Shown piece after piece: positions 1,385 through 55,980 of a stretch of 64,000 nt of DNA. The number at the start of each line of letters is the position of its first letter. The first letter of the stretch is position 1. This stretch comes from Mytilus edulis (taxonomy: Eukaryota), in contig NC_092347.1 in NCBI RefSeq assembly GCF_963676685.1, positions 90,644,001 to 90,708,000 of the forward strand, written 5' to 3'. Made by a program: the position numbers and the translations under genes. Below the pieces are notes generated by a model, which did no database searches, had not been told where the DNA came from, and saw only the letters and a list, made by a program, of their open reading frames with translations.

Positions 1385-3093
1385 CTAATATGTTCCTGTT
1401 TTACCTAAAATGACGAAAACAATATTGAAATAATAAGGTGATTGCATTACATTATTGAAGGAAGAGCAGTTCATTCTCCAAAGATTAAGTTAAATGTACA
1501 TTCCGTTAAATGCTCAGTTTTATGTTTATTTCGGCTGTTCATACCTTTTCTAATTTTTCCGTACTTCTCCTTTTTGTCCCTTTAGTATTAAATGTTTGAT
1601 TCAGAACATCGGTATCAAAGTTATTTAAATCACTTTCAAATAAGACAGGAAAAAAAAGGTTTATTGGAAACGACTATTTCAAAATTTATTTAAATTCTTC
1701 TAATCTTTCAAATCAATGTTCATTTTTTATATATTACGTTGATGATATAGTTTTAGTGTAAAAATATATTGCTAATGTCAAAATAGTGTAAAGTACAAGC
1801 AATTAATGTAATGTTATCACAAAATATTGGACCTTTTATTACCATTTCAAATAATTTTGTAATTATTCATTATGTGGCATACTCTGTTTTACGATGTACT
1901 CCATTCATATTCATGAATTGGGATTTAATTTATATCAGTCATTTTTTATGAATGCAATTTTGTATGAATCTCCCTCTCAGGTAACAATTTGACAATTGTA
2001 ATTATATCATATGTATAAAATTTCGTATTCAAATAAAGGCAACAGTAGTATACCGCTGTTCAAAACTCATAAATCCAGGGACAAAAAACAAAATCGGGGT
2101 AACAAACTAAAACCGAGGGAAACGCATTAAATATAAGAGGAGAACAACGACATAACACCGAAACGTAACACACACAGAAACGGACCAAGCATCAGACAAA
2201 ACACCACGAGAATAACAAATATAACATGAAAACCAAATACATGAATTTGGGATAGACAAGTACCGTGCCACGTCTGATCTCAATATCTCAAAAATAAGAG
2301 AAAACACAAACGACTCAACGTTAAAATGCAACACACACAGAAACGAACAATAATATAACAATTGTTATTTTTATTTGGAGATTTACGATTATTATTTTTA
2401 TTTGGAGATTTACGATTACTTACCTCCAAATTTACCGAAACTGCTTAATCCATTTAGACCTTGTCTTCCATTTATGAGTCCACCGTTGAAGCCAAAACCT
2501 TTTATACCACCAATACCATATGATCCAAAGCCATTTAAACCACCATATGATCCAAAACCATTCAAACCACCAATACCATAAGATCCAAAACCATTCAAAC
2601 CACCAATACCATAAGATCCATAATTGTTAAGACCGGATGCCCCGTTGATACCATACGCCCCATAACCATTTAAATTGTTATTTCCAACAATTCCTCGACT
2701 GTATCCATAACCCATGGAAGCTCCGATTCCTTTACCGTGAACACCGTGATTTCCATTTCCACTGAATCCATTCAAACCCCTTCCGTTCATAAACCCGTTT
2801 CCAGGATATCCACTTTGTACACTATATCCATTGTATCCAGCATATCCGCCAATGTTTAATGGTGAACCGTAACCAAAAGCGTTGTTGGAATATCCCCCAT
2901 ATCCATAACCTAATCTGCCATAAATCGGATATCCGAATCCACCATTTCCTTGAAATCCAATACTACCAATATTACCTGGTCCAAATGGATTTCCGTATGT
3001 TTTCAGGTTATATTTGGGACTATATCCTTTTTCTCCGGCCTCCGATGCCACAATTCCAACAAGGGCTAAACAAATCAATACTATTGGTAGCAT
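1385..3093 (-). CDS. Secreted Gly/Tyr/Asn-rich structural protein, type A, copy A1 (229 aa; coding exons 3093-2424 and 1404-1385; C-terminus KFGGKTGTY)
   Basis: Acceptor tttcAG|aaccactaaccATG; signal peptide MLPIVLICLALVGIVAS; GGLNGFGSY(GI) repeats. Donor GGAG|GTAAGT at 2424/2423, acceptor ttttAG|GTAAAACAGGAACATATTAG. Spliced length 690 nt, in frame. Same structure in all paralogues. Confidence 0.9.
2031..2360. mobile_element. Interspersed repeat (AAATAAAGGCAACAGTAGTATACCG family), truncated insertion in intron 2 of A1
   Basis: Absent from intron 2 of A4 and A6. A second, inverted and shorter copy lies at ~36118-36314 and is absent from the paralogous site at ~22820. Confidence 0.75.
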
Positions 3094-3328
3094 GGTTAGT
3101 GGTTCTGAAACGATATGCATTTCTGATCAACTAATGATAATGTATTTGAAATTTCAAAATATTGGCCAATCAGGATGACAGAGTAAGTTGAAAATATATA
3201 AGAAGGTAAAACTTATCCTGGCGTCAAAAGTTCATGAAACTTATTTAAAAAGAAACAAATGCGACATATACGGGTACCAAAAATGAAAAATCATTATGTT
3301 AAAAACCAACACGAAACATACATTTTAC

Positions 3329-3634
3329 CTTTGTGTCTTTCTATGGTGGTGTGTTCCTTGTGGTACTTTTTGATTGTTGTGCTTTATATATCATAATCTC
3401 TGACCAAACGTTTTGTTATAATCAGTTATAAAATAGACATTTGACAATGATTAACATGTGTAATAGTGGGTTCTATTTAAACAAGGTTAACCACCATGAT
3501 AGAAAACTATTGTCATCAATTATTGGTTGCTATTGTTTTACTCGTTATTGTCATCGTGGTCTGTTGAAAAATAATACCTATTAGTGACATTTGCTATGCA
3601 TTGTACATGTTTAATTCAGTATGAGAGAAATTCC
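3329..3634 (-). promoter_or_regulatory. Promoter and non-coding exon 1 of A1
   Basis: TATATAAA at 3390-3383; exon-1 donor CAAAG|GTAAAA at 3329/3328; conserved upstream module shared with the paralogues; kB-like site at 3625-3634 (one mismatch). Confidence 0.75.
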
Positions 3635-4107
3635 TCATTATTGAAGTATTTATACACATTCACTGGTATTCAAATTGCTTATTTCTGGTTATTTCATTAG
3701 TGTCATTTATAACTATATTTGTTATTTATCTATTTAAGATTAAAACACTTTTAAACATCGTTGACCTATATATTTCACAACATTCGGAAAGGTCATCGTT
3801 TTATTGTTTTGTTATAAAAGTTGAATGGTGATGTATTTTTTTTTATTAAAGAACATGTATGGTAATAAGATGACATAAATATATCAAGTGTATTTCATTT
3901 ATAAGTACATTCATTGAAATAACAAGTTTGCGCATCTTTGGTTCATTCTAAATTAAAAACTGACAAGTATTATATAACCTCATTGGTTGATATCTTTGGC
4001 GGAAGTACATGTGATACATCCTCATTCTTTCAATATCCAAGCTGTGGGAAGGTCGTGCTTCACGTGTTGTCGGCAAAGTAACTATATTCTTTAACTTTTA
4101 CTTTCAT

Positions 4108-4470
4108 TTGCCTTGGTGGCAATATAGCCTTGGTGGCTTTAATACCTTGGTGGTCATTTATATATGCCTTGGTGGCAAAAGATCTAGGTGGTCATTTATA
4201 TATGCCTTGGTGGCAATAGACCTAGGTGGTCATTTTTATATGCCTTTGTGGCAATAGACCTAGGTGGTCATTTTTATAATTTTTTACATTTGCCTTGATG
4301 GCAATATTAAATTAAAAATACTACCCTTTGGGGCGTCAAGACCTTGGTGGTCATTTATATATGCCTTGACGGCTTCTTGATAGAACTAGATAGTAATGTT
4401 TGACCTTGGTGGCAAAATGTTTTGGGATTTGGACCTTGGCCGGTAGTTATTATCAACCCAGGTGGTCAGA
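4108..4470. repeat. Array of about 13 CC(T/A)TGGTGG-type motifs, partly in 38-bp dimeric units
   Basis: GCCTTGGTGGCAATA and GACCTAGGTGGTCATTTATATAT alternate through the region. Confidence 0.85.
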
Positions 4471-6752
4471 TATTTGTTATGCCGTAAACGCAGGACAAAG
4501 TGCTATCGCTATATAAAATATATGTGGAAGTGGGGGTTCTGGCCAATTTGGGAACCTGTAATTGAAAGGAGAATAATAAATTGTTTATAGCGTAAAAAGT
4601 TTCTTTTGTTTCTTTTGAGTGTTGTGCACTTTTCATTGATAATTACATCGTACATACTGATAAAAATGCTTTTTAAAGACTTTGTTAGAAAAGAAAAGAA
4701 ATATTGAGAAAGTGAAATAATTTAGTGTGACATGTCACTTGGTATTATTGTTAGAATGAAATTCATAACAGTGTAGCTATGGCCATTCATTGACTGGGGA
4801 AAATTAGGTGAACGTTCGTCTGTAATGCCCACTACTCACGACGTACTTATCATATACATTTAAACTGTGAGGTCACCAAAGGTTCTTAACGCCTAAATAA
4901 AATGATTAAAAATACTAATCAGGAATTACCTTTGTAATTTGAAAATAAATAAAAATGGCCTTCAACACGGAGTCTTGGCTCACACCGAACAGCAAGCTAT
5001 AAAGGTTGAATACTTAAAATTCTTTACTTGATTTTTTGTTATGGTTTGACCATCAATTTTCCTAATATGATATCGCACGTTCTTTCAGATTTTTTTTTTT
5101 TACTTAATTGGCTTTAAAAGTTACAATGCATGATGTCGTCTGGTTATGTAGTTCATATGTGTTTTTCGTTTCTCGTTGGTTTTCCCGTTTGAATGGTTTT
5201 ACACTAGTAGTTTTGGGGCCCTCTATAACTTGCTGTTCGGTGTGAGCCAAGGCTCCGTGTTGCAGGTCGTACCTTGACCTATAATGGTTTACTTCTATGA
5301 ATTATTTCTTGGGAGGAGAGTTGTCTCGTTGGCACTCATACCACATCTTCCTATATCTATCTATATCTATACATTTGTTTTTCAACAAAAGAATACATCA
5401 CAAGAATATAAGTTTTATAAGAAACGTGAGAAATTGTGTTGGACTTGAAGATAAGGCAAAGTGACAAATATCAGAAAGAATGAATCGTTTTATGGTATTA
5501 AACAAAGAAATCAAATGATTTTTTAATTATCCAGAACTCTTCACAAACAAAACCCACATGTATACGCATTGAATAAATAGTAGGCCATTCTAAAATGATC
5601 ACACCGTAGAAGTAGTTGTGCTCTTAATCAATGAGATATTTTGTGAATTAACCCCATCAACTTAATAGTTTTTTTAACAATGGATAAACCTATTTTTTTT
5701 TATTATTATTAAATAATATCATCTCTGAACATTATTATTCTTATAAATGACACGGTTGTATGTGATGATTATAATAAATATTTAAAACAAATTCCTTTCA
5801 AGCTTTGTAAAAAGAAAGTTTCATTTTATGTATCGGAATGTGTAACAAGTGAATATTTCAATCCCCACTGGAAGGCCTCTGACAGACTGGGTGAGCATAA
5901 AATCATAGCCGTTGACAAACAAGTTACAACCTACAAACGTTTTACTGTCGACCACACTGTTATGCAATTAATTATATTTACCGGAGTGATGTGTATTGAA
6001 TTATGAGGTGTCTTCGTCGAGGTCAGCGTTCAGCGGTCTGTTTGATTGTTCATAAAATTGAATAGAATGAATGGTAAAAATACGGATATATTAACACTAA
6101 ATTATGTATGTCTGTGTTGAGAAAGGCAAAAGAAGTCAATATGGCACGGTATTAAAAAAAAAACAACAAAAAAAAAATAATAATAATTGATGGAAGCAGC
6201 TTTATGGTCAAATGAACCTATTAAGTAATTCTAATAACTTGTCCGTAATTTCATGTGGATGTATATATAATTGCATTGATGTGTTAAAATGTGTCACATA
6301 AATCTGTTGTCTTGGCAGATTAAATAATGATTGTACCATTTTTTGTTTTGTTTAATAAATATATATGTTGAATGATTTTGTATACTAGTACAAATGTATA
6401 CTGAAATTTTATTTATGGTTAAATTTTTTAATTTAAATTTCTTTGTCTACTGTTCGAGGGACACTGATTCCCTAGTGGTTTTTCCACGTGGATTGTAGGC
6501 AAAGGGATTTTTCCTTTTCGAAGTGTGACTTCTGCTGTCTTAAGTACAAATAAACAGCTTGTTATTGGTTAATATATTTTCAGCAGAGTTGTGAAGAATC
6601 AAGTGGAAATACAATTGTCAATGTTCCTGATTAGGAAGTAAAATGTGTGTTTGATTCAACAGCAGTAAAGAAAGAGACAAGCCAGCATAGGTTACACTTG
6701 GAGGTGAAGTTCCTTTGCTTACAAGCTTTCCATATGCCAAAGATGTTATTAA

Positions 6753-7346
6753 GGTTCATCATAAGGAATTGAAAAATATGGCCGTGCTTACATGTTGCCT
6801 CCAAAATTACTATGAGTACAGACAAACTGGTACATTCAGGAAAGTTTTAAGACATGGCAGGAACTAGATATATAAAAGTTATATGAAGTCTACGTTTCAG
6901 AAAATTAAAAACTTAACTGGATTTTGATGTTAATTTTTTTCCAGTCTGCAGAAGATAGCAAAATAAACAAACACCCGAGTTTCATTTGATACGGTCCACT
7001 CAGTTACACAGTTTAAACCTGTTAAATCACCTATTGTTTACAGGTGTCTATTGTCCATCTATTGTCCATTTAAATCAATACTACTCACAACATTGATTAT
7101 ATGAGAGGAGCTTCTCAATCGTTTTCACTACTTAGTTAATTTTTGCACCTTCTGCAGGAACGAAAAAAAATGGATAGCAAAATCTAGAAAAGTTTATAAT
7201 TTTCTGTAACATAAAATGCATTTAGAATTTATATATCTAGTTCCTGCCATCCCTTAAAACTGTTGCAGGTGTATAGGTTAGTCTGTACTCAGAGTAAAAT
7301 TTGGGGTGTAAATACGGCCATTTTAGCCAAAAGGTTATGATGAACC
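6753..7346. mobile_element. Fold-back MITE with TTAA target duplication (Kolobok-like ends), nested in the 4.7-kb element
   Basis: TTAA|GGTTCATCATAA...TTATGATGAACC|TTAA. Long imperfect inverted arms, e.g. ATGGCAGGAACTAGATATATAAA / TTTATATATCTAGTTCCTGCCAT. Confidence 0.75.
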
Positions 7347-8907
7347 TTAAAAATGACAATGTTCATTTTTATATGATTTCATTGCCTTAACTCGAACTTT
7401 AAAAGTCTATGTGGTCAAATTCATGAGAATTTATTGGATTATGAAGTATTTATACAGAACTGTGTACATGTATCTTGAAATTTTTAGAAGTGTTTTAAAG
7501 TAATTAAGGAATAATATTTAATAAAAGTGTTAAAAGATATTTTTGTTTTGAGTATTGGGAATACTATTACTTCGGAGAAAGCCTTGCTAGTGGTGTAATT
7601 TGAGATTGGCCTGCAAATAAGCTGTATGGATTATAGAGTTTTCTATGCCCATAACTTAACATGAACTGGATGCAAGATTATATCAATCACTGAGGATATG
7701 TGTATAACCTCATTGGTTGATATCTTTGGCGGAAGTACATGTGATACATCCTCATTCTTTCAATATCCAAGTGGTGGTTGGTTTAAGGGCTATGTTTTGG
7801 TCAGGCAATACTTATTGCTTATTGCCTGTTTGGGTTGATGAGAAGTTCCCCCCTCTCCCACCCATAAGTACCAAAATGTGGATTTGTTTTTTATATTCAT
7901 ATTTTAATATTGGTATTACATGTATGCATTTTGGGTTGATGAGTACGAGAAAACATTAAAAAAAAACCATAAGCATTACCATGGGATCATGTTGATGGAA
8001 CACTCCTTCGCTTTATCGATTTTTAAGGGAAAGGTCAAATAGGTCAAATAGTAAGATCACAAAAATACCGAACTTAGAGGAAAATCAATTCGGCAAGTCC
8101 ATAATCACATGGCAAAATCAAATAAAAACGCATCAAAAACGAATGGACAAGAACTGTCATATTCCTGACTTAGTACAGGCATTTTCAATTGTAAAAAATG
8201 GTGGATTAAACCTGGTTTTATAGCGCTAACCATTTCACTTTGATGACAGTCTCATCAAATTCCGTTATATTTACATTGATGCGTAAACTAAACAGACACA
8301 ATAAATAAAAGTCAAAATATGGGTACATCAATCATCATCGTATAACAATCAAGTGTATTGGTATGTCTGTGCTTACTTTTTCATTACAATGGTAAAAATA
8401 AGATTATATATCTCGGATGACAATAATGTTGATTATAATGCTTAATTTTATGAGCTCCAGAGTAGTTGTATAAGAAACAACTGCGCACTTTATCCAGTGA
8501 GCTCTTGTGCATTGCATTGTGCATAGTAGTCCACATTTTGGTTTCTGAAACGTATAGATATTATCTTGTATTCGGTTCTTTCCTCTAGAGTTTTCTATGC
8601 CCATAACTTAACATGAACTGCAAGATTATATCAATCACTGAGAATATGTGTAGATCAACCAAATAACATTATACAAATGTACCAATATTTTACCAACAGT
8701 ATTATTTTTTTTTTATTCTTTTAATCTTGGCTTACTTATTTGTTACTAAATATTTTTTGCATTTATCATATAACGCTCAGTTGATTTATAAACTGTTGTT
8801 TTTCTTATGGTTCGAAAAAGTATTTCAAAAAGAGTAATTCTTGCGTGATGTTGTAGGCCAATATATATATAGTGGAAAGTCGAAACTTAACATCGAAAAT
8901 GATACGG

Positions 8908-8951
8908 GCGTCACTGATGAGTCTTTGGAAGACGAAACGCGAGTGTGACGT
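8908..8951 (+). ncRNA. Minimal type I hammerhead ribozyme motif, probably inactive, in an ~83-bp insertion (8910-8992)
   Basis: GCGTCA-CTGATGA-GTC(TTTGGAA)GAC-GAA-ACGCGAGT-G-TGACGT. The cleavage triplet reads GUG instead of GUC. The insertion is absent at the paralogous site ~30370-30395. Confidence 0.7.
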
Positions 8952-11699
8952 ATATATAAAATTTAGTCCTGGTATCTATGATGAGTTTATTTTCGGATAT
9001 ATGAAATTATTAACGTGTTGTTTCAATTTGTTTTTCGGTCTTTCTAAAATGAATAATAAATATTTCAAAACATTATGTGTATCAGATCAGAATTTTTGTC
9101 CGCACTATATACCTTAAACAAATTATATGCAACAAATCAAACACATGTACCATGCTTATTCATACTTATGGTAATTTCACTGATAACACAGTGTGGGAAC
9201 GGAACTGTACGGTTTTCTAATAATTTGGTCATTCGGGAGACTGTCAAGCGGTGCTCCGACATTTGCAAAATAACAAGTTGCTTGATGGAAACTTTGACGA
9301 ACTCTTATGTTACTATATAACGTTTCTGCTTCAAAATTTGATAGCTAAAACATTCTTTATGTAAATATGAACCTTAGAATGGTGGAGCTCCGTGTAAAAC
9401 GATCAAAATTGTCACACAACAGCGATCAAAATGTCAAATAAACATCGAAAAATCAATGTTTGCTACCTGAATTTTCACATGTACCTTTTCTGATATATAT
9501 TCTTACCTGTCTGAAAGTTTCAAAGCCATTGTCCCAGTAGAAATCCAAATATATTCATTTTCTCCATGTCGGGTATTTTTATTGACTGTACAATCGCTTG
9601 CAAGTTTACTGTAATATCACTCGGAGCCTTCCTGTACAATCGCTTGGAGCTTTTCTTTTCATCGTTTTGCCAACTAGACTACCCCGAAAGGAGGGTAACA
9701 TAGTTACTTTACCTTGTTATGACTTCACGGTACGGCTAGCAAGCAAGCTAGTCTAAGGTATTACTTTTTCCTACACACTCATTGCATTTTGCTGTAGTTT
9801 CTAGTGGCATATGACTAATTATAACTCTTAAGTGGATAATGCTTACTACTATCTCTTCTGCCACATTCATGATCAGTTTATGTATTCCATGATACTTTTG
9901 TCATATAAATATTTATTAAAACTACTGCAATCCAATACAATATATGTCTGGCATGATTTTTCTCTCCTTTTTCTGTTACGATTTAATAACAGTTAGTTAT
10001 TTGGTATTGTTATCATTTTTTTAAAACCTAAATTGCACACTCAAAAATGTTAATGATGTTTGAAGCTTTTATTTGAATGGATGCAGCCTGCATTAGCGGT
10101 TGAAACCCCATTTTCCCGATTTTTTAAAAATTTTTGTACGTTTCAGGATGTTCCGTGGTTTGGATCCCCTTTTGCAGAAAGACGGGATCCGCACATGGTC
10201 TAATATCGTCAATGATAGTATGCTGATCCGATCATTCATCTGATTTTGTTAGTTTGGTCTTCTGCTGTGCTAATTTTGGGGAGAAATGAGAGCACACAGA
10301 CATTTTTAACCCTGCCAAATTCTTTATATACCTGTTTCAAGTCAAGAGCTCGTAGTTCAGTTGTTGTCGTTGGTTCATGTCTGTCATATATGTTTTTCGT
10401 AAATTGTTTTATTATGAATTAGGCCGTCAGTCATAGTAAATTCGAAACGCATTGATTCTTATTTTTCATGTCGGGACCTTTTATAGCCGACTATAATTGC
10501 TTAAATCCATTTATTTTTTTAACTTTGACAATCATATCACATCTCCTTATTTTTATATTGATGATATAAATGTGGTTTAATAAACCAACTGTTTCGTTCA
10601 TTTGTCGGATGCTATAGTTGGGAATATTGAAAAGTTCCTGAATCGTGACATTGATATAAAAAAAATCATGTTGAAGGATTTTGTGTTTTCTCTGTCTTTC
10701 AGATATTAAGTCCTCTCCCATCCTTGATAAAATTTTATTTTACTAGAGCTCTTTCTACCAGTAGCTTTAGCTTGTAATAAACAGACATCTCATTTGAAAT
10801 TATACCAGATCTTCTTATTTTAATATCATGTTTATTGACATATACGTGTCTTTTCTTGGATCAGTGGTAAGCTACCACCATTCCACATTCGAATTCCTTG
10901 ATACAATATCCCGGTCCTTTGGTGAAAAATTCTTTGTTGTATTGTTCAAATATGTATTTATTAATTTTTTTCAAATTGCTGGTAAATAATATAATAAGTA
11001 AAATTCAAAATATGCTAATTACCCTTCAAGAGAATCTAGTCACCTTTTCGGTATATATAAATATTTATTTTGTACGAGGATTATTTTCATTTTTATTTTA
11101 GATTAGATTCTTAACATATTTTTTACTGTCCTTTTCATTTTGTCTTGTATACTTATTCAGTGGTTGTTTGTTTATATGTGTTACATATTTGTTTTTCGTT
11201 CATTTTTTGTACATAAATAAGCCGTTAGTTTTCTAGTTTTACATTGTTATTTCGGGGCATTTAATTTATAACTGACATGCTAAGAAATCCTCGCTAAAAA
11301 TTCCGGTCGACCTCCTACGGCAGTCATTAGTAGCTAAACATTTGATTTCATTCAAGAAATTAATTTATGACCTTCATGTACGTGTCGCTTAGAACACGAC
11401 CATATACCGAATGGTCAATATTAATCATCCATGTAATTTGCTCTATGGGGTGTTTGCAGAATTTCAACGGAGGCAATTTCTTGGCATGCTATGCGGTATG
11501 GCATTTGATCATTGTTGACGACTGTACGGTGACCTATAGCTGCTCTTTGGCAATCATAACACACCTTCTTTATTATATCTATTGCATACATTTTGTTTTT
11601 GTCTCTGATATAGTCACCTTGAAAGAGTTCCTTGATAGAATCTTAATCTTTTCAATGATTGAAAACAAAATGTCAGCCATGTAGTTGAGAGGAAAAATA

Positions 11700-11735
11700 A
11701 AGAACTGAAGAAGGTCAATGGCCGAAACGTCTTGA
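11700..11735 (+). ncRNA. Penelope-type minimal hammerhead-like motif
   Basis: CTGAAGA-A-GGTC(AAT)GGCC-GAAAC-GTC; stem I is weak. Confidence 0.45.
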
Positions 11736-11851
11736 AAAATTGGTTTATTTATACAATTATAAAAAGTATGTTCCCTATTGGAAGTTTAAAAACAAGAATC
11801 TTAATTGTCAAAATGACTGGTTATATGCTTATTTTCACTTCAAATACCATA

Positions 11852-12392
11852 TCTATAATACTAAAATTACGAGGTCCAATTTGTCAGCCGTCATCACGTA
11901 AAAACGATGAATCAAAGAATTCAACTTTATATATAACTAATATAGTACAATGGTGTTGATTAAAAATTACACCACTCTAGGCCCATTTGTTTTCCACGTA
12001 ATTAATATTGCCAATAATTAAGAAGTTCCGGATCGAATCCGACACCGATACCAATAGTATATTCACCTGTTACCTGTTACCTTATCTGTGCGTTCCGCAT
12101 CTGACAGGCGCACCACCAAACAGTGTATTTAGAATTTTGCTGTATACTGTTGAGTAAAAACTACTTCATTCCAGGCCCTTTTGTTTTCCAAATTATTAAT
12201 ATTACTAATAATTGAAAGGTTCCAGGTCGACGGGTTCAAACAGAAAGATTTTGAAAGCAGAGAAAACTGTGCACCTTATAATACATGTTATAATCGGCAT
12301 GATTTTATCAGATGACAATACCAATACTAAAATAAGTCATACTCATAGTTATATACCAGTCACGGACCTGCGATATCACGGGTGTGTTCTAG
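11852..12392 (+). mobile_element. Non-autonomous Helitron nested in the Transib-like element
   Basis: A|TCTATAATACTAAAAT 5' end; 3' hairpin CCTGCGATATCACGGG followed by TGTGTTCTAG|T; inserted between A and T with no TSD. Confidence 0.8.
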
Positions 12393-15300
12393 TATTATAT
12401 AATAGGACAGCAAGAAACAACCAATACAACGCATTTGCAATGTATTTAATAAATTTTGCCAAGCAATTCTACAGGAAAGCTCCAAGTGATTGTACAAGGA
12501 GGCTCCGAGTGATATTACAGTAAACTTGCAAGCGATTGTACAGTCAATAAAAAATATTCGACATGGAGAAAATGAATATATTTGGATTTCTACTGGGACA
12601 ATGGCTTTGAAACTTTCAGACAGGTAAGAATATATATCAGAAAAGGTACATGTGAAAATTCAGGTAGCAAACATTGATTTTTCGATGGTTATTTGACATT
12701 TTTGATCGCTGTTGTGTGACAATTTTGATCGTTTTACACGGAGCTCCACCATTCTAAGGAAAACGTTTTGATGCATATATCTTTCTTATTATTTTATTTG
12801 TTCATATTTACATAAAGAATGTTTTAGCTATCAAATTTTGAAGCAGAAACGTTATATAGTAACATAAGAGTTCGTCAAAGTTTCCATCAAGCAACTTGTT
12901 ATTTTGCAAATGTCGGAGCACCGCTTGGCAGTCTCCCGAATGACCAAATTATTAGAAAACCGTACAGTTCCGTTGCCACACTGTGGATAAGCCCTTTCCT
13001 ATATTATTGATAAAAGTCATTCTGCATTTACAATCATATCTTGGTGTACCCATTCAGCTTAACTTTCTTATAGGTGTATCTAAGACTTATAATTTAGTAA
13101 ATAGCATACATGAATTTTGCTGACACAACGTTACACAAATCATATTGAGAGCAAGAGTAACATTAAAGTTTTAACATATGATAAATCGTTCGATTAACTT
13201 TAATCTTCATCATAATATTGAGCGGTACAGAATTCGAATGTTGTCAAGTGTGTCTTCAGAGTTGATCAATATTCTTGGAAATCTATCAAATGTAATAAAC
13301 GTTTAAAAACTTAAACAACAACTGGAACTGATTAAAACAATATCATACACGACTACGGAATCATATAATTATATCAAAGCATAATTCAGATAATTTGTTA
13401 TTCGCACATTGTTGTTCAATCCTTTGTTTAAAAAAAAAAGTTTTGTGTTAATATCTATCTTCAGATATCTAGTATCATATATATGTGTAAATAACAAAGA
13501 GGACAAATAATGTGTTGATAAACTCTGATTATTCCAAATTCATGTATTTAGCTTAAATGTTTAATGTTATATTTGTAATACTCATCGGATTTTGTAAAAT
13601 ATGTTCACGTCTTTTCGATTATATTCATGTGCTATGGTAAAGAAAATTAATCACCGCCTTCATTAGTTAGATTTCATTTTGTTCAACGTAATCTGTACGA
13701 TGGTTTACGTTTGTAGTTAATATTCAAAACAAACCGGTGATTGATCTGTTTCTTTGTGCCATTGTATATCTTTTTTCCAGTAGACAGTGGTCATTCCCAT
13801 ATAAACCAACTTCTCTAATTTTATTATATTACCTTTATGGAAATGAAGTAGAAAGAGGAACTTTTCAAGATGAATGTTAAATTAGCATGATCCTTAAATT
13901 TTACATGTGATTGTGACTGGAGCAAAGCGTTTCAAAATCTGATATAATCAAGAGGCTTAATCTATTCTATTCCCACCATAGTTGTTACCGTTGGAAGACG
14001 TGTTTTCAATGGAGTGTTCATTTTTATAGAAACCAACTGTGCGTCTTATTATCACACTCTTCCACCTGATCATAAAGTAAAAGATATCATCAATAATCTA
14101 GTTCAAATAATCTTGCAATGTAAATTATCTTTACGACACATCTGGTTTTGATCCATTTTTGATTTCATGCGATTTTTTCAATTCATCATGAGTCTCTGAT
14201 TGATCTAGGAGATTCGGATAATCGCTTTAATTAACAATCTATATAAGAACTTGGTTGACGATAACGAAACAACTCCGTTTCTTGCTTTTCGTGTTGAGCA
14301 ATCTTTTCTAGTTACCAGGAAAATAGTCTGTACTGTTTTTATAATTCTATTGGAGAGAGTATTGTAAATTCATACGTAATGACGGGGTTTTTATTAATGT
14401 GAATAATGAGACTAGGTGAGTATCGCAATGATAAGAACTACTATGTCCGGTACATATATCTGTGTGGCGATCTTTTTTCAAAAATCGCAATAGTTTATCT
14501 CGCATTTTTGTCAAATCTTCAAAAATTATAATATAAAATTCGCTCAATAGTTTCTGAATTTACAGTAGTTTAAATGGTCATTCTAAGTTTTCTTGTTGCA
14601 ATCAATTGCCATTTCCCATCCCCTTTTCTTCGACTTCACCGAATGATTAAATAAAAGAACAAAGTGTTTTCGTGGAAATGAGCAACACAAACTTTGTTCG
14701 TACAATCAGAAAGCTAGTTCAGATATTGTTGTAAATTTTAAATAAACCATGTGTCTCACGTGTATATCAATCAACTTCAAACTGGTTAAGGGTATTACCT
14801 CACAATCAGTCTACAAAAGCCCTGACATTGTACAGTTAAGTCTTGATGGTACATACTTTTAAAATAACATTATCGGCAAAATTGTGATATGATATCCTGT
14901 CTTTTAAATAGCGGTCTTCATGACCAACCATTATGCCTGAACAAATCTTTGTACATGTTAAAACATTTAGTAAAGGTGTTTAGTTATTTGGGGTAACGTT
15001 GTTCCTGAATTTATAATGTTTCAGTGCACATCTATTTCGTTTATTAAAATCTTAATGACGATACATACCACGCAAAAGGAACAAGTTGGCGAATATTGTC
15101 ACTAAATGACCGAAGAAGATTGATGTCTAAAAATCATTTAGAATAATATTTGATTTAGTTACAGTATTTGTAATACATTTATAGATATTTTTGTTCTTAT
15201 TTTAATTTGATAGAAACTTTGTAGTTCTTTTCTATTATAAACTCTATGACGATAACACACATTATATTCAAAATTCAAACAAGGTCCTTACAGCAATTAA

Positions 15301-15559
15301 AGCATCTCCTTTTCGATTTCACGAAAACAAATGAAGGAAAAATATCATAAGCAATATTCGAACGTTAGTTTTCTCGTTTGAATTGTTTTGCATTTGGCAT
15401 TTCAGGCCTTTTAATGCGGTATGGGCTTTGCTTATTATTGTAAGCCGTACGGTGACCCATAGATGTTAATTTCTCTGTTATTTGGTCTCTTGTGGATAGT
15501 TGTATATCATACCGCATCTTCTTTTTCATATAGAAAACTTACCATTTAGTTGCACATAC

Positions 15560-15900
15560 CCCTCTAAAACTTGGGTTTGATCTCAGGTTCTTCGGAAGGG
15601 TGAACAGATACGGTTCTGCATGTAGCACCCGTCATGCTGCTCGTGTTAGTAAAACCTAGTTATAGGTATGATTTGATAGTCATATTCAGGAACAAGGGGA
15701 CGTGATTGTAGTTTGCAATATGGTCATATCCGTTGTCATCGGGGAAACGGATATTCCATACAATCAACTCGTGATGGCGTCCATAACATTTACGAATGGA
15801 TGATTTCAACTTTACACCTGATAACTCTTGATTTATTGCCTTCCTTTTTAGCAGCAATTAACTATCAAGGAAATCATGATAGAAAAATCAAGCCCTGGGA
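15560..15900 (-). pseudogene. Degenerate C-terminal fragment and 3' region of a Penelope-like retroelement RT (paralogous copies at ~27240-27590 and ~40885-41230, + strand)
   Basis: Translation LLKRKAINQ..VKLKSSIRKCYGRHHELI resembles the post-RT region of the PMG/YIDD-type RT at 49.3-49.9 kb. Present in all three B-A spacers. Confidence 0.55.
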
Positions 15901-16476
15901 TATCATTTCAACTGGGAGATATTCCATTGGATTCATTATTTTTCGTTGGATACCAAGTTTCGTGGATTTTTTTTCGTGGGTACAGGTAAACCAAGAAATT
16001 AAATATTGAACGAAAAAGATATTTTCCATACATATGTATGCAGACTTTGTCATAACCATGAAATTATTGAAAGGCAATTATATAATTATTTAGAATTTTT
16101 TAGGCAAAATTAATTGTATCTGTTGTATCCTTTATCTCAAGTTCAATCAATGGAATAGATGTATTCAGCATAGTCACCAAAGTCAATTTTAACATATCAT
16201 TTTGATATTCCTTATGTATTGATTAAATTTCAGACAAACTACTCGTAATTTTTTGAAAGATTTAAAAACATTTCAATTTTTTTTCTACAAATATAACTTC
16301 CTTGCCAACATAACTGCCTTTAGTTTGTTTATTAACAAAGACTTCCAAAAAGTAATGTTATTCTTATCCTTAATGTATACGCTGACTTTAACGTCCTTAT
16401 ACTTGTTTAAATACAAAATCAAGAGATGTTCCGGTGATTGTGACTTAAGTAGTATTTTAACAATGTTTTTTTTTTA

Positions 16477-17817
16477 TGGTGACTTGAATAACACCGGTAT
16501 CAGTCAGATTACAATTCTACCTTGACAGGTAAGTTTGTATTTAGCCTATAAAATACTTATTTAGCCTTGAGAATTGAAAGGTCAGTTTCCCATACATTCA
16601 TACAATAGAGGTTGATAAATTTGGCTTCATGCCATTTACCTTGTCCAAAATTAAGGTCACTTTATTGTTATTGTGATATTGTTAAAGTACTAAAGAACCC
16701 TATATTCTGACCAATACTTAAAACTTTGTGCATCTTGATTTAATTGTTAAAAATCTGTTAATGTTGAATTTTAGGGGTTATTTTAGGCCTTTTAATTGCA
16801 TATTTCTTTACATGGTAGTTTTTTTTTCAGAAAAAAACTATCTGCTTGACTGTTATAGAAATAGACTATGCTTGCAGTGTATTGTTTTTTGTTTACACCA
16901 ACTCTGACAGATTATTATTAAGTTGCAAAATATTTTAAATGAGAGCTGAAATTTTTTCTATCTTTAAATGTGCATTGAACAATGTTGAAGGTTAAAATAA
17001 TCATAATGTGAACAAGAATGAAGAAAACATCTTGGTCCCAAAAAAACCCATCATCAACCAGGATATAATATTTCAAATTTTAATTAATTATACTAATATC
17101 AGATGAAATCTCAAGCCACTATTTTGCATGTTTACAATGTAGGTCATGTCCCAACAGAAAATCAATGAATTTGACAGTACAATGTACTTTTAGCACAAAC
17201 ACATAAGGTCACTGTGAAATAGACATCTAGGGCAAGAAACAGTCAGTTATACCAAACCAGTTTGACTAGATGTCTAGTTTAAAACCAGTTTGACTAGATG
17301 TGTCCTATATTTTGACAATGTAAATGACATGAGGACCTGCATGGGTTTTTTAATATCTGTATTCTTTAAATTTTTAGGGCATTTTTCTTTTAATAGCCCT
17401 AAAAATAACTCTCATTCTGTAAAGCAAATTCTCATGAAGATTTTACTATATAGTCTTTCTGTTACAAGATTATTTATCAATTATGCACATTGATCATTAT
17501 ATTATCGGTATTGCATTACAGTTACCTAAGTTTCCTTTTTATTTTGCACATTTATTCTTTATACTTTTGCACCGCATTATTCTCTATTCTTTATTTTGTT
17601 GTTCATTTTCTCTATTCTCTATTTTTTGTTGCTATTACATTTATTTTCTATTCTGTAAACCCCATTCTGACCCTTATAGGTAAACTTCTATTGTATGAAT
17701 GGGATAAACTGACCTTTCAATTCTCAAGGCTAAATAAGTATTTTATAGGCTAAATACAAACTTACCTGTCAAGGTAGAATTGTAATCTGAGTGATACTGG
17801 TGTTATTCAAGTCACCA
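16477..17817. mobile_element. 1.34-kb non-autonomous TIR element with ~135-bp TIRs and TA TSD
   Basis: TA|TGGTGACTTGAATAACACC ... GGTGTTATTCAAGTCACCA|TA. The empty site is at ~40285-40305 in the paralogous spacer. Confidence 0.85.
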
Positions 17818-18761
17818 TAAATCGTATAAGATATATAATCCGTTCAACCTATTTTGACTCATGAAAATTCAAGAGTCTGTCTTAAATTGCAGTAAATTAA
17901 ATGGCCTACCAAATACTTTTCGATCCCTAACATCACCGAAGAGACATTAATTGTCGAAATCCGGATATGGTGTAAAACATTTCGCACCTCATGTTATGGT
18001 TACATCTTTGCCGCAAGTTTATTGTTTTCTACTTGGTATTAAGTTAATATAGAGATCCATTTTGTTACACCTTGTGATCAATTTGTTTGGCAATCGATAA
18101 TGGTAGTCAGCAGGCTTAAGAACATCATTTGTTCGACCTGCTAGTCAAATACGTTTTGTTAAAATATATTTTGTCACTCTTTTGGTCTTTTGGAAAATGT
18201 TGTTTGTGCTGTGTTTAGAACCTTTAACAACGAAATTTGTTACATGCACACGTATAAAAAATGCGGTTTTTATCCAAGGCAATTATAGGTTTGAACGCTG
18301 TTTTCAATTTAGACTTGTTTTATATATATATATATAGATATAACGGAATAGATATAACGGAAAATGAAGGATACTGCTAAATTCTTTTCTTTCTTGAGAC
18401 GAAGTTCCTATATTAAGAGGTCTATTAAGTCAGCTTCCTATGAATAAAGTAAAACCTTGTTAAGAAGTATAACCTCACCCCCATAGTTTAAGTAAGGTTT
18501 ATTCTGTTGGAGGTTTTAATATCTGGAATATTTTGTTGACTTAAGTTTCTCATTTCACCTTTTTTGGTCGCAGTATTTCTTCCACGAATCGTTATCAATC
18601 AGTGTGTTTATAGATCTTTATATCTCCATATTTTCTTTAAATGTGATAATAAAAAATAAAGAAGAAAGAGATAGTTTATATTCATTCTAATATTCATAAA
18701 CCAGTATAAAAAAACAAATGGGTATAACATCGACGTCAATTCTTCATGGACTTCTTGGATC

Positions 18762-19890: not shown

Positions 19891-20097
19891 GTTTGTTGGT
19901 TCTGAAACGATTTTCAATAATTCGTTAAAATAAAATAATAATCATAATACCTTCAAAACATAAGCAAATACATATAACCGAAAATGAAAGAAACAAGTTG
20001 CAAATAAAATATTGAGATATATATACGAAATATGACGATAAACGTGATCATTTTTGAGAGAAAGACAATTATCTTTTAAAGCAAATCAACTGCCTAC

Positions 20098-37757: not shown

Positions 37758-37965
37758 GTAGGCAGTTGATTTGCTTTAAAAGATAATTGTCTTTCTCTCA
37801 AAAAATTATCATGTTTATCGTCATTTTTCGTATATGTATCTCAATATTTTATTTGCAACTTTTTTCTTTCATTTTCGGTTATATGTATTTGCTTATGTTT
37901 TGAAGGTATTATGATTATTATTTTATTTTAACGAATTATTGAAAATCGTTTCAGAACCAACAAAC

Positions 37966-39366
37966 ATGACACCAATAGTATTGATTTGTTTAGCCCTTGT
38001 CGGACTTGTGGTATCGGAGGCTGGAGAGAAAGGATATAGTCCCAAATATAACCTGAAAAAATATGGAAATCCTTTCGGACCAGGTAATATTGGTAGTTTG
38101 GGATATCAAGGAAATGATGGCTTTGGATATCCGTATTATGGTAGATCAGGATACGGATACGGAGGATTTGGCAACAACGCATATGGTTACGGTTCACCAT
38201 TAAACATTGGCGGGTATGCTGGATACAATGGATATAGTGTACAAAGTGGATATCCTGGATACGGGTATTTACATGGCAGAGGATTGAATGGATTAGGTGG
38301 TTATGGAAAATACGGTGTTCACGGTAACGGAATCAGACTTTTTAATGGTAATGGATTAGGTCGAGGACTTGGAGGGTACAACAATCTAAATGGTTTTGGG
38401 TCATATGGTATCAATGGGGCACACGGTATTAACAATTATGGATCATATGGTATTGGTGGTTTGAATGGTTTTGGATCATATGGTATTGGTGGTTTGAATG
38501 GTTATGGATCATATGGTATAGGTGGTCTGAATGGTTTAGGATCATATGGTGGTTTGAATGGTTTTGGATTATATGGTAGTTTGAATGTTTTTGGATCACA
38601 TGGTATAGGTGGTTTGAATGGTAATGGTATTAATGTCAATGGTGGACTAATAAATGGAAGACGAGGTCTAAGTGGATTGAGCAGTTTCGGTAAATTTGGA
38701 GGTAAGTAATCCTACATCACCAAAAAGAAGAAAAACTGTTATTTAAATGGGAAATTTTATAATAATAATACAACTACAATTACCAAATTGTTACTTGAGA
38801 GGGAGATTCCTAGAAAATGGCAGATTAATTTCCCGATACACGAATATGAATGAGTACATTTTAAAACATAGCATACCGCATAATGAATGAATTAGAAAAT
38901 TATTTAAGGAATGGTAGTAAAAGTTAAAATATTTTGTGACAACATTGCTTGTACTTTACACTATTGTGACATTAGCAATATGTTTACGTTAAAACTATAT
39001 CATCAAGGTAATATATAGAAAATGAACATTGATTTGAAAGATTAGAAGAATTCAAAATAAGTTTTGAAATAGTAAAAGCTAATAATAATTAATAAACCTT
39101 TTGCTTTTTTTTTCTCGTTTTATTTAAAAGAGATTTAGATTAATTTGATACCGATTCTCTGAATCAAACATGTAATACTTAAGAATAAGAAAAGGTATGA
39201 ATAGCCGTAATAGACATAAAACTGATCAATTTAACGAAATGCACATTTAACTTAATCTTTGGAGAATATGAACTAAATTCAATACTCTTCCTTCAATAAT
39301 GCAATGCAATCACCTTATTATATTGATATTGTTTTCGTCATTTTAGGTAAAAAAGGAACATATTAG
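37966..39366 (+). CDS. Secreted Gly/Tyr/Asn-rich structural protein, type B, copy B5 (251 aa; coding exons 37966-38701 and 39347-39366)
   Basis: Acceptor at 37954/37955; donor GGAG|GTAAGT; acceptor ttttAG|GTAAAAAAGGAACATATTAG; 756 nt in frame. Confidence 0.9.
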
Positions 39367-46476: not shown

Positions 46477-46782
46477 GGAATTTCCCTCATACTGACTTAA
46501 ACATGTACAATGTATATCAAATGTCACTAATAGGTATTATTTATCAACAAACCACGATGACAATAACGGGTAAAACAATGGCAACCAATAATTGATCACA
46601 ATAGTTTTCTATCATTGTGGTTAACCTTGTTTAAATAGACCCAACTATAAAACATGTTAATCATTACAAATGTCTATTTTATAACTGATTATAACAAAAC
46701 GTTTGGTCAGAGATTATGATATATAAAGCATAACTATCACAAAGTACCACAAGGAAACATACCACCATAGAAAGACACAAAG
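46477..46782 (+). promoter_or_regulatory. Promoter and non-coding exon 1 of A6
   Basis: GGAATTTCCC at 46477-46486; TATATAAA at 46720-46727; donor CAAAG|GTAAGC at 46782/46783. Confidence 0.75.
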
Positions 46783-47088
46783 GTAAGCAGTTGCTATACT
46801 TTAAAATGTATGTTTCGTGTTTGTTTTGAAGATAATGATTTTTCATATTTGGTACCCGTATATTTCGCATTTTTTTCTTTTAAATAAGTTTCAGGAATTT
46901 TTGATGCCAGGATAAGTTTTACCTTCTTACATATTTTCAACTTACTTTGCATTTTACTCGCATCTTACATCTTTGATTTTCATTTACTTATTTATATTTT
47001 CTGTCGTGCTGATTGGCCAATATTTTGAAATTTCAAATACATTATCATTAGTTGATTAGAAATAAATATCGTTTCAGAACCATTAACC

Positions 47089-48487
47089 ATGATACCAATA
47101 GTGTTGATTTGTTTAGCCCTTGTCGGAATTGTGGCATCGGAGGCCGGTGAAAAAGGATATAGTCCCAAATATAACATGAAAACATACGGAAATCCATTTG
47201 GACTAGGTAATATTGGTAGTAATGGATTTCAAGGAAATGGTGGATTCGGATATCCGATTCATGGCAGATTAGGTTATGGATATGGGGGATATTCCAACAA
47301 CGCTTTTGGTTACGGTTCAGCATTAAACATTGGCGGATATGCTGGATACAATGGATATAGTTTACAAAGTGGATATCCTGGATACGGGTTCATGAACGGA
47401 AGGGGTTTGAATGGATTCAGTGGTAATGGAAATTACGGTGTTCACGGTCAAGGAATCGGAGCTTTCATGGGTTATGGATACGGTCGAGGACTTGTTGGAA
47501 ATAACAATTTCAATGGTTATGGAGCGTATGGTATCAATGGGGCATACGGTCTTAACAATTATGGATCTTATGGTATTGGTGGTTTGAATGGTTATGGATC
47601 ATATGGCATTAATGGTTTGAATGGTTTTGGAGCGTATGGTGGTTTGAATGGTTTTGGATCATATGGTGGTTTAAATGGCTTTGGATCATATGGTATTGGT
47701 GGTATAAAAGGTTTTGGCCTCAACGGTGGACTCATAAATGGAAGACAAGGTATCAATGGAATAAGCAGTTTCGGTAAATTTCGAGGTAAGTAACCTTAAA
47801 TCTCCAAATAAAAATAATAAGTTATTTGAATACGAAACTTTATACATATAATATAATTACAATTGTCAAATTGTTACTTGAGAGGGAGATTCATACAAAA
47901 TTGCATTCATAAAAAATGACTGATATAGATTAATTTCCCAATTCATGAATATACATTGAATACATCGTAAAACAAAGCATACCGCATAATAAATAATAAG
48001 AAAATTATTTAAGGAATAGTAATAAAAGGTCCAATATTTTGTGATAATTTTACATTAATTGCTTGTACTTTACACTATTGTGACATTAGCAATATATTTT
48101 AAACTAAAACTATATCATTAACGTTATATAAAAAAAATGAACATTGATTTGAAAGATTAGAAGAATTTAAAATAAATTTTGAAATAGTCGTTTCCCATAA
48201 ACCTTTTTTTCCCATCTTAATTGAAAGTGATTTAAATAAATTTGATACCTATTTTCTGAATCAAACATTTAATACTAAAGGGACAAAAAGGAGACGTACG
48301 GAAAAATTAGAAAAGGTATGAACAGCCGTAACAGACATAAAACTGAGCAATTTAACAGAATGTACATTTAACTTAATCTATGGAGAATATGAACTGAATT
48401 CACTACTCTTCCTTCAATAATGCAATGCAATCACCTTATTAAATCAATATTGTTTTCATCATTGCAGGTAAAAAAGGAACATATTAG
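47089..48487 (+). CDS. Secreted Gly/Tyr/Asn-rich structural protein, type A, copy A6 (238 aa; coding exons 47089-47785 and 48468-48487; C-terminus KFRGKKGTY)
   Basis: Acceptor at 47077/47078; donor CGAG|GTAAGT; acceptor ttgcAG|GTAAAAAAGGAACATATTAG; 717 nt in frame. Confidence 0.9.
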
Positions 48488-49268: not shown

Positions 49269-49269
49269 A

Positions 49270-49900: not shown

Positions 49901-49999
49901 AAAAGTAAAATAACAAAATTCCCTAACTCCAAAGAAAATTCAAAATTTCATATAAATAAAAAGATGACAATTCGGAAGCTGGAATCATCTATGGTGTCT

Positions 50000-53130: not shown

Positions 53131-53930
53131 TCTAGTGAAAGTACATCATATATGTAGCAAAAACTGAAGTCAAAGGATGATGCTCAAATGAAAGAAAAGT
53201 ATCTACACCACGTTTTCCCGAATTGTTTTGTTGTATTGATAAATGAATGGGATACTATCATCTGCGCCATGAGACAAAACATTTCAATTATCATCACTAG
53301 GGTGTCATGAACATGAAGACATTTGTATATTCGAAACAAATTGACTCAATAAATTCATATACATTATGTGCGAGTTTTTTTACTTTCCCGATGTACAACA
53401 ATAACAATTATATTTAAAACGTTGATCTTAAAATATTATATAATGTTTTTGGGTAGTGTGACTTAATCAAATTTCAAAATGAAGACATTTCACTGTTTTA
53501 AAAAGCGTCGAATCAAATGTAAGAAATTCTAAAACATAAATGTAAGACAGAATAAACAAAAAGTTATGAAACAATGTTTACACATGTACATAATGTAATT
53601 TGTTTGATGTATGATAACAATAAATTTGACAATGAAAAACACTTGCAATATTCACATCTTTAAGCTTTTTATGGCTATATATGTTAAAAGAATAGAATAA
53701 CATGCATTTTTCGTACACAACAATTAAACAATATAAAGGTTAATATGTAGCCTTTTGCAAAATATATCAGTATAAATGATCGTTAAAAGAGTGTGAATTT
53801 GAATTGACAAATTACAAATACACTGCTAAATGATATTAATGAAATATACAATATACGACATCAATAATTAGAAATACACAACTTGAATACATGTTAAAGT
53901 GAACGAATACATTGTACTTAAATAAAATGA

Positions 53931-54226
53931 GGAATTTCCCTAAAAACTGAATTACATATGCAGTATAATTAAATATTACTGGAGGTAAAATGCTTAAAAA
54001 CCACGATCATTACAACGGATATAACAATAGCAACAAATAATTGATGACAATATTTTCTATCATAGTGGTTAAACTTATCTAAATAAATCCACAATTACAA
54101 AGGTATATCATTGTAAAATGTCTATTTCATAACTGATTATTACATATTTTGGTCAGTGATATTGGTATATAAAGAACAACAATCACAAGGTATCACAAGG
54201 AACTGCCATCATAGAAACACACAGAG
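53931..54226 (+). promoter_or_regulatory. Promoter and non-coding exon 1 of C7
   Basis: GGAATTTCCC at 53931-53940; TATATAAA at 54166-54173; donor CAGAG|GTTAGT at 54226/54227. Confidence 0.75.
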
Positions 54227-54857
54227 GTTAGTAATTTTACTATTATTTGTCTGTTTGTTTTTTTATTTTAAGCCATGGCATTGTCAGTTTATTTTAATGT
54301 TTTATGAAAGATCATGTCTATTATATTTGGTTATTTCAAATTATCTATTTTTTACTAGATTTCTTAAAAATTTATGCCAGTATATGTTTGCATTAAAGAA
54401 TTTTGTTTTAACATATTCCAACCAAATGCATTTCCGACTTTTAACTTTTATAATTTGTCATGTTAACGTTAAAGGGGGTACCAAGCATTTTGACTGAAAT
54501 AGATTTGCCTCGTTACATTTTGACAGGATATTTACTTTAATCTGTGGACAAACAGATTGTTATTCTAAATAAAAATTATAACCACAAAATTAACAGGATT
54601 TATTTCAGTGGATGTATGACAGTTTGACAAGCACTGCTATGCTTAATTTATCTTTACTTGTCGTCTGTATATTTTAAACGATAAGAGTATTCTAAAGAGT
54701 TAACTCCTTTCGGTGTTCTGTATCCCCTTTATTTACTGTTGCATTTTGTCTTCCGATTCTGATAACGTGTTTAAATTCTAAAAAAAAGAAGAACAAAAAA
54801 TATTATCAATTTCAATATGTGAAAGAATGTTTTAATACAATTTCAGAATCAACAAAC

Positions 54858-55980
54858 ATGACACCAATAGCATTGATTTGTTTAGCCCTTGTCGGACTTG
54901 TGTCATCAGAGGCAGGTGAAAAAGGATACAGTCCCAAGTATAATCTGAAAACATACGGAAATCCATTCGGACCAGGTAGTATTGGTGGTAATGGATTTCA
55001 AAGAAATGGTGGGTTTGGATATCCGTCTTATGGCAGATTAGGTTATGGATACGGGGGATTTGGCAACAACGCCTATTATGGTTATGGTTCACCTTTAAAC
55101 ATTGGCGGGTATGCTGGATACAATGGATATAGTGTACAAAGTGGATATCCTGGATACGGGTTCATGAACGGAAGGGGTTTAAATGGATTTGGTGGTTATG
55201 GTAATAACGGTTTTTACGGTAAAGGTATCGGACCTTTCATGGGTTATGGACACGGCCAAGGACTAGGAGGAAATGTGTATGGATCATATGGTATAAATGG
55301 GGCATACGGTGGTAATAATCATGGATCATATGATATTGGCGGTATTGGTAGTTTGAATGGTTTTGGATCACTCGGTGGATTGAATGGTTTTGGATCATAT
55401 GGTAGTTTGAATGGTTTTGGATCATATGGTAGTTTGAATGGTTTTGGAATTAGTGTCAATGGTGGACTCATAAATGCAAGAAACGGTTACAGTGGGTTTG
55501 GCAATGTCGGTAAATTTGGAGGTAAGTAATCTAACATCACTAAATAGAATAAATGCTAAATTTTATAAATATAATATAATAACAATTGCCAAATTGTTAT
55601 TTAAGAGGGAGTTCCATACAACATGGCATATCTTTTTTTATTGTAAAGATTTATTCTCTTATTCCTTGTGCATTGTGTTCTATTTTGAAAGTGATTTAGA
55701 TTAATTAAAATACCAATTTTTTGAATAAAAAAAAAATAAAAAGCCTGACACAAGAGAATAAAAAAAAACAAAGAAGGAAATGTACGACAGAATAGGATTA
55801 ATATAAACAACCAGAGTATACATACAACTGAAGGATTGATATATTCTAGCAGAATGTACATCTAACTAGTTATTTGGAGAATATGAACTTAATTCACAAC
55901 TCTCCCTTCAATAATACAATGCAATTAACTGATCATGTCAACATTGATTTATCATTTCAGGTAAAAAAGGAACATATTAG
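54858..55980 (+). CDS. Secreted Gly/Tyr/Asn-rich structural protein, divergent type C, copy C7 (227 aa; coding exons 54858-55521 and 55961-55980)
   Basis: tttcAG|aatcaacaaacATG; signal peptide MTPIALICLALVGLVSS; donor GGAG|GTAAGT; acceptor tttcAG|GTAAAAAAGGAACATATTAG; 684 nt in frame. Confidence 0.9.

Follow-up and report, generated by a model that had tools for sequence, protein, structure and literature searches.

In a 64,000-nucleotide stretch of the Mytilus edulis genome (contig NC_092347.1, positions 90,644,001 to 90,708,000; hereafter, the window), seven genes, g1 to g7, encode Gly/Tyr/Asn-rich proteins with predicted secretion signals. We found an eighth intact member past the window end and established that the array forms the left edge of a complex of 25 Gly-rich secreted-type genes with a common blueprint, which covers ∼510 kb (90.645-91.154 Mb of G000:C4). 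g1 to g7 are real, intact, selected genes that form an uncharacterized Mytilus family of a known kind of matrix protein. We slightly favor the view that their products are mantle-made scaffold subunits of the organic shell layers, i.e., the periostracum or the insoluble shell matrix. The interpretation given in an initial annotation of the window, an extracellular scaffold of shell, periostracum, or byssus, was partly supported, but the place of the array in a far larger gene complex had been missed.

Six-frame translation of the window (31% GC) revealed seven Gly-rich open reading frames (ORFs), the genes of which span positions 1385-55980. Each gene consists of a TATA box, a short noncoding exon 1, an exon 2 that begins 11 nt upstream of the ATG and carries nearly the whole coding sequence, and, behind a phase-1 GT-AG intron, a last exon whose 20 coding nt encode G-K-K/T-G-T-Y-stop. 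The spliced products of the three exons are 227 to 251 amino acids long, and all seven frames are intact. As first annotated, the paralogues fall into three subtypes, A (g1, g4, and g6), B (g2, g3, and g5), and C (g7), a division backed by synonymous divergence (dS) and by the tree described below. The invariant mature N terminus was confirmed as EAGEKGYSPKYN at residues 18-29 in 7/7 proteins, and the near-invariant block also held up, since the central 21-mer PLNIGG...GYPG is exact in six of the seven and has two changes in g6. Repeat units are spaced by 9 or 11 residues, as had been described. The 17-amino-acid signal peptide, called by inspection, is common to the copies, with Glu instead of Gly at position 13 in g4. 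The basic, Tyr-ending tail is present too, with one refinement: it lies outside the long ORF and requires splicing of the phase-1 intron to the 20-nt last exon. The spliced tail matches the C termini of database models of homologues from other Mytilus species.

The mature proteins have a mass of 21.2-23.6 kDa and a pI of 9.4-9.6, and they contain 33.9-34.6% Gly, 10.8-13.2% Tyr, 11.1-12.7% Asn, 4-7% Phe, 3% Lys, and no Trp. In agreement with the earlier description, Cys is absent from the mature part (the sole Cys lies in the signal region) and acidic residues are scarce (two to three per chain). NG pairs number 13-16 per chain. Lys is concentrated at the ends: of the 7-8 Lys per mature chain, 5-7 fall among the 16 N-terminal or 10 C-terminal residues (shuffle P ≤ 0.0002), windows that were picked after inspection of the sequences. 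These terminal Lys adjoin Tyr, and both ends are the most conserved parts of the proteins. Adjacent aromatic pairs are rare, with zero to two among the 36-42 aromatics per chain (P ≤ 0.006). None of three window proteins tested matched a Pfam family. AlphaFold2, run with a 19-sequence alignment, gave a mean predicted local distance difference test (pLDDT) score of 34.4, with the signal helix (residues 3-21) as the sole formed element and a pLDDT of <50 for the rest; the mature chains are predicted to be disordered.

Searching with the g5 protein returned 11 matches among 7997 candidates scored, all of them uncharacterized Mytilus models. Homologues in M. coruscus (CAC5421008.1), M. galloprovincialis (XP_076105186.1), M. 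californianus (XP_052098898.1), M. trossulus (XP_063431383.1), and M. edulis (CAG2200057.1) resemble g1 to g7 in signal length, N-terminal motif, repeat core, and, where the model is spliced, a GKFGGKKGTY end; of these, only CAC5421008.1 falls outside the divergent subfamily of the eighth member, g8. Since nothing returned was closer to g5 than 76%, subtypes A to C seem largely missing from protein collections. A profile of residues 1-125 found six matches in 1.84 billion representatives, two from Mytilus and four unnamed, and one further unnamed relative came from a separate search. Distant relatives retain chiefly the signal and the mature N-terminal motif, which is kept in the unnamed P0018, P0020, P0021, and P0023. 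The N-terminal part led only to unnamed or uncharacterized proteins and to no characterized one. Together, the homologue searches, Pfam, and AlphaFold2 support the annotated secreted, amplified, Gly/Tyr/Asn-rich structural family without a named match.

In the tree, the seven window proteins and one M. coruscus protein cluster together (99/97), apart from the g8-type models. At least four g8-type copies exist in M. coruscus, so the branch that was amplified appears to vary with the species. A search with P0013 gave no additional paralogue, its best match being g8 (94%), and an exact look-up of eight ORFs and of L059 (see below), in their unspliced forms only, found none of them in the protein collection. 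The automatic database names of matches vary ("acanthoscurrin-2-like," "prisilkin-39-like," and "keratin-associated protein"). A literature search retrieved no paper on the motif GYSPKYN, the family accessions, or, judged by titles and the opening of abstracts, a Mytilus Gly-rich cluster, and a search with six motifs retrieved unrelated papers only; because the main byssus and periostracin papers were outside the search, novelty is not fully established.

We then considered the history of the array. dS was 0.04-0.08 within subtypes and 0.24-0.35 between them. Self-alignment revealed a direct repeat of a B-A cassette at 90-93% identity (24256-26944/37150-39874, 26941-30145/40589-43834, and 30728-33266/46260-48810) and an inverted copy at 89-91% (19027-21297/25898-23670, 13738-15363/29619-27988, and 2389-3974/32279-30609). 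These alignments indicate that the window genes arose largely by triplication of the cassette, with two direct copies and one inverted. The ratio of nonsynonymous to synonymous divergence (dN/dS) among copies was 0.33-0.47 in all 15 between-subtype pairs, 0.32-0.44 for g1 to g7 versus g8, and 0.36-0.86, based on few changes, in the six within-subtype pairs; such ratios indicate that g1 to g7 are under purifying selection. The claim that indels preserve the frame was borne out, as 13/13 exon 2 indels scored in nine pairwise alignments, whose pairs are not independent, were multiples of 3, unlike most intron indels. Between subtypes, the 150 bp preceding the TATA box diverge by 14-23%, compared to 27-34% in sequence farther upstream and 42-47% for intron 1, which argues for a shared, constrained promoter; this segment can be aligned with that of g8 too. 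Runx-, Sox-, and homeodomain-like words in the promoter were rejected as evidence, being short and not kept in all copies. A 180-bp tandem repeat of two copies occurs inside the duplicated spacers, at 22086-22428 and 35371-35713.

Expression was evaluated from 24 sequencing runs listed with family sequence, of which 18 were guessed to be RNA and none was recorded as RNA. We examined contigs from seven guessed-RNA runs on g5, g6, and g7. On g5, contigs covered exon 2, with exon 3 reached in one run; run X10 had loose ends at the predicted splice sites, with exon 3 letters past 38705 and exon 1-type letters ahead of 37953. Contigs with few differences lay on exon 2 of g6 and g7 (subtypes A and C). 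Contigs of run X19, the kind of which is not on record, passed through the g6 and g7 introns. No guessed-RNA contig reached across an intron with 31 letters to either side, and uncovered introns in such contigs were not taken as evidence alone. Given the guessed-RNA contigs and the spliced tails of the database homologue models, genes of the g1 to g7 type are likely transcribed and spliced.

The eighth member, g8, lies 4.3 kb past the window end (L016:3716-5574, about 90.712 Mb of G000:C4). It encodes 235 amino acids of a divergent subfamily, a type that is annotated in databases, and has the three-exon structure and tail of g1 to g7. The 500 kb examined on the right flank yielded 17 more Gly-rich genes, each opening with a signal-like stretch of 17 residues immediately behind a splice acceptor; the frame is open in 13 and broken in 4 (L050, L070, L077, and L078). 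A phase-1 donor directly follows Lys codons in 12 of the 17, and candidate last exons add a Tyr-ending tail. The 100 kb examined on the left flank contained no Gly-rich genes. L059 (L059:2743-3231), 243 kb past the window end, is the ninth gene to carry the family N-terminal motif; it combines a downstream-type signal, this motif, GGYGNVGY repeats, and a KKY end within the exon, without the last intron. A hidden Markov model built without L059 scored it at an E value of 3.7e-5 among 19,443 peptides (next best, 1.6). A degenerate motif pattern, designed after L059 was seen, gave nine matches in 1.37 Gb, all at this locus, and none in the control.

The other right-hand genes are of several types. 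L025:6368, L046:6640, and L048:5254 are mutual paralogues whose 19-22-kDa products contain 65-66% Gly and 15% Tyr; their size fits periostracin, and their Gly content is above the 55% reported for it. L068:1570, L070:4533, L073:6018, and L075:9042 are Gly/Trp/Arg-rich with Gly-Ala repeats, L070 having an early stop. Eight small Gly/Tyr genes of 10-12 kDa (L064, L066, L069, L071, L074, L077, L078, and L079) include the broken L077 and L078; most bear a YVGAG..VVR motif, and several alternate with the Trp-rich type. L050:3997-4848 encodes Gly/Ser/Trp/Lys repeats and is interrupted in frame by a stop that follows 157 codons. Pfam gave no family for four Gly-rich neighbors tested. In M. galloprovincialis, the locus numbers of a g8-type and an L079-type model follow one another on a single contig, which hints at conserved linkage.

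The complex is connected to the shell by the peptide YVGSGHVYVER, which was reported from the nacre and fibrous-prism fractions of M. galloprovincialis and which matched expressed sequence tags (ESTs) with the same signal type as the complex genes and a KGY end (PMC4517812). This peptide is encoded by 4 of the 17 neighbors (L068, L070, L073, and L075), so the complex includes shell-matrix-type genes. The Mytilus shell proteins described as "GRS-rich" or Gly-Tyr-Ser-rich (PMC4517812) have close relatives encoded in the complex that share with g1 to g7 the signal type, a single large coding exon, and a K-G-Y end but differ by 53-57% Gly with Trp and Arg and by the absence of homology beyond this architecture. 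Since close relatives of the linked genes occur in Mytilus shell, we lean toward mantle and shell rather than the byssus.

Several observations weigh against a shell scaffold. The shell evidence is a single peptide, the genes for which are 330-410 kb beyond the window end, and the residue preceding it is Ser in this genome and Arg in the matched ESTs; moreover, linkage does not prove a common tissue. Motifs of the window family were absent from the shell-proteome supplements of PMC4517812 (5/5 files) and PMC6641155 (4/4 files) and from 9 of the 16 files of the mantle transcriptome PMC3896809, these databases being limited and g1 to g7 proteins yielding few mid-sized tryptic peptides. The RNA status of the runs is a guess, and their labels are coded and name no tissue. 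Even spacing of aromatics was significant in just three of the seven copies. None of the 68 tyrosinase-domain matches in the genome (from 124 candidates) is near the locus. Finally, the Gly/Tyr/Asn content and the pI of 9.5 fit the byssal thread matrix protein TMP-1 equally well.

The comparison with shematrins and thread matrix proteins that the initial annotation drew holds for composition and not beyond. Expression at the mantle edge and occurrence in the prismatic layer are among the traits of shematrins. They are described as having dominant GnY (n = 2, 3) repeats and a C-terminal RKKKY/RRKKY/RRRKY/IRRKK/PRKKY signature (PMC3896809); five of their genes are arranged in tandem on two scaffolds in P. 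fucata (PMC4759782), and shematrin-like proteins of different bivalves are reported to be unalignable (PMC9210306). g1 to g7 are likewise basic, Gly-rich, and repetitive, with a Tyr-ending basic tail and tandem genes. In contrast, each chain has two to four GGY and no GGGY, 11-13% Asn, and 4-7% Phe, the array is far larger, the ends are KKGTY or KTGTY, with no signature match in any of g1 to g8, and the profile of residues 1-125 matched no Pinctada shematrin among the 1.84 billion proteins. We thus rejected shematrin identity on repeats, signature, and homology, the Gly-rich, basic, repetitive character being shared. KRMPs, which have a Lys/Trp-rich N-terminal domain (PMC3896809), were rejected because mature g1 to g7 have 3% Lys and neither Trp nor Cys. 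Periostracin was reported as a basic protein of ∼20 kDa with ∼12% Tyr plus DOPA (3,4-dihydroxyphenylalanine) and 55% Gly (Waite 1979, via PMC3821031). It is extracted from periostracum. g1 to g7 agree with it in size, basicity, and Tyr content, but their Gly content of 33.9-34.6% led us to reject identity, in a comparison of composition only, periostracin being unsequenced as of 2013. The predicted signal, the disorder, named matches in Mytilus only, and the tandem array are those of the secreted repetitive low-complexity-domain (RLCD) matrix proteins of bivalves, and by analogy, the family may work like shematrin-type RLCD proteins.

As shell scaffold subunits, the proteins could function as follows. 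Once the chains are secreted, their repeat core, with its spaced Tyr and Phe, would condense or pack to form a dense phase. Tyrosinases, domains of which are plentiful in the genome, would oxidize part of the Tyr to DOPA-quinone, and the quinone would then link to Lys and Tyr in the conserved K/Y-rich N and C termini, yielding a tanned network of end-linked chains. Deamidation of the numerous NG pairs could accompany maturation, and tandem copies would raise the output of a coregulated locus. Such cross-linking after Tyr oxidation has been proposed for the Gly/Tyr-dominated proteins, typical of quinone tanning, that are reported as expressed in the Pinctada periostracal groove (PMC3191542).

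Alternatively, g1 to g7 may be byssal matrix or foot-gland proteins, functionally akin to the thread matrix proteins that bridge the collagen fibers of the byssus. TMP-1 is described as a Gly/Tyr/Asn-rich, DOPA-containing protein of 56.5 kDa and pI 9.5 with a GYGYGNYGYGY consensus (PMC9999432, PMC6474901, PMC12817120). It is a product of the foot core gland and occurs in the thread core. g1 to g7 share its dominant residues and pI (PMC9999432), their 13-16 NG pairs recall the Asn deamidation of thread matrix proteins (PMC12817120), and named homologues are restricted to Mytilus. However, at 21-24 kDa and with at least 5/11 mismatches to the consensus, they are not TMP-1 itself, no returned homologue is named a byssal or foot protein, and it is a shell peptide that the linked neighbors encode, so we regard a byssal role as unlikely. 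We find it still less probable that the proteins are glycine-rich cationic defense or mucosal-coat proteins of an exposed epithelium (gill, mantle, or gut) without a load-bearing function. Their basic, Cys-free, predicted secreted, and multicopy nature and the name "acanthoscurrin-2-like" would suit that role, but such automatic names shift with composition, the net charge is small and restricted to the chain ends, and we saw neither a sign of between-subtype diversifying selection nor a propeptide or dibasic processing pattern.

Tandem amplification and one shared promoter might suit a brief burst of synthesis, and guessed-RNA runs holding the family number only 18, as might be expected if the proteins had a structural role confined to one stage, in the larval shell, first byssus, or egg coat, and did not belong to the adult mantle. 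This explanation appears quite improbable, since relatives of the neighbors are present in adult shell. The copy number might also be inflated in part by uncollapsed haplotypes, with a smaller true array, as mussels are highly heterozygous and within-subtype dS is merely 0.04-0.08. We give such an artifact little credence: subtypes A and B have three copies each, exceeding two haplotypes, no N gap lies among the seven genes, and five members are on one 1.8-Mb M. coruscus contig, with accessions between CAC5421001 and CAC5421008.

The epidermal differentiation complex of vertebrates and the chorion loci of insects likewise string together many short Gly/Tyr-rich structural genes, which have a noncoding first exon, a single main coding exon, and termini that cross-link; the mussel complex resembles them by analogy only. 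A bolder extension of the shell scaffold reading, which we hold to be doubtful, is that the locus is a coregulated "shell-skin differentiation complex," a bivalve counterpart of the epidermal differentiation complex. Its ∼25 three-exon-blueprint genes would supply the periostracum and organic shell frame, the window seven would be end-linking, K/Y-telechelic subunits, and the long-unsequenced 20-kDa periostracin would be a mixture of same-sized products of the locus. By arithmetic alone, two parts of the L025 type (19-22 kDa, 66% Gly) and one part of the window type (34% Gly) would give ∼55% Gly and 14% Tyr.

The mussel periostracum is a model for quinone-tanned, acid-resistant coatings, and its proteins were reported as unsequenced in 2013 (PMC3821031). 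The locus provides a defined list of candidate sequences for them, many of which would be invisible to standard proteomic searches because they are apparently absent from protein collections. It also suggests that the Gly-rich matrix genes of mussels are gathered in a single large complex. Should the tissue prove to be ordinary mantle, the window family would be one more lineage-specific shell-matrix family of a well-known kind.

Table 1. Coordinates of the window genes, duplicated cassettes, promoter, and flanking genes
Feature	Position	Strand	TATA box	Exon 1 end	Exon 2 (ATG)	Last coding exon	Description
g1	1385..3390	-	3390	3329	3104-2424 (3093)	1404-1385	Subtype A, 229 aa
g2	18762..20160	-	20160	20098	19901-19155 (19890)	18781-18762	Subtype B, 251 aa
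g3	24798..26446	+		24860	25063-25770 (25074)	26427-26446	Subtype B, 238 aa
g4	31189..32942	+		31241	31537-32244 (31548)	32923-32942	Subtype A, 238 aa
g5	37695..39366	+		37757	37955-38701 (37966)	39347-39366	Subtype B, 251 aa
g6	46720..48487	+		46782	47078-47785 (47089)	48468-48487	Subtype A, 238 aa
g7	54166..55980	+	54166	54226	54847-55521 (54858)	55961-55980	Subtype C, 227 aa
B-A two-gene cassette (g3+g4)	24256..33266	+					Direct repeat at ~37150-48810 (g5+g6)
Inverted B-A cassette (g2+g1)	994..21297	-					Longer spacer
Conserved proximal promoter and noncoding exon 1	37545..37757	+					g5 example; precedes all seven
Ordinary flanking genes	L027:5627-6148, L029:6243-7955, L034:7382-8947, L080:1172-2281						TMEM129-like, B-box protein, RRM protein, FkbM methyltransferase

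The left flank has a TMEM129-like exon 14 kb from the window, and the FkbM methyltransferase ORF is immediately right of the last gene of the complex. The ordinary flanking genes in Table 1 can serve as synteny anchors. Long ORFs between complex genes looked transposon-derived, and short-exon genes would escape detection. A Pao/BEL retrotransposon (L054:3847-9566), recognized by Pfam, and an LTR-element-like region with a 476-amino-acid envelope-like ORF (L022:1209-4619), called by inspection, are within the complex. Between g7 and g8, we observed a gap of 100 N (62366-62465), the only one in the window, and, by inspection, retrotransposon-like gag/pol ORFs (window 63499-64000 and L016:2-1417, the latter without a Pfam match). 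Elsewhere in the window, inspection revealed a reverse-transcriptase-like fragment on the minus strand (45825-46238), and two very high-copy short repeats are found at 49048-49378 and 55999-56300.

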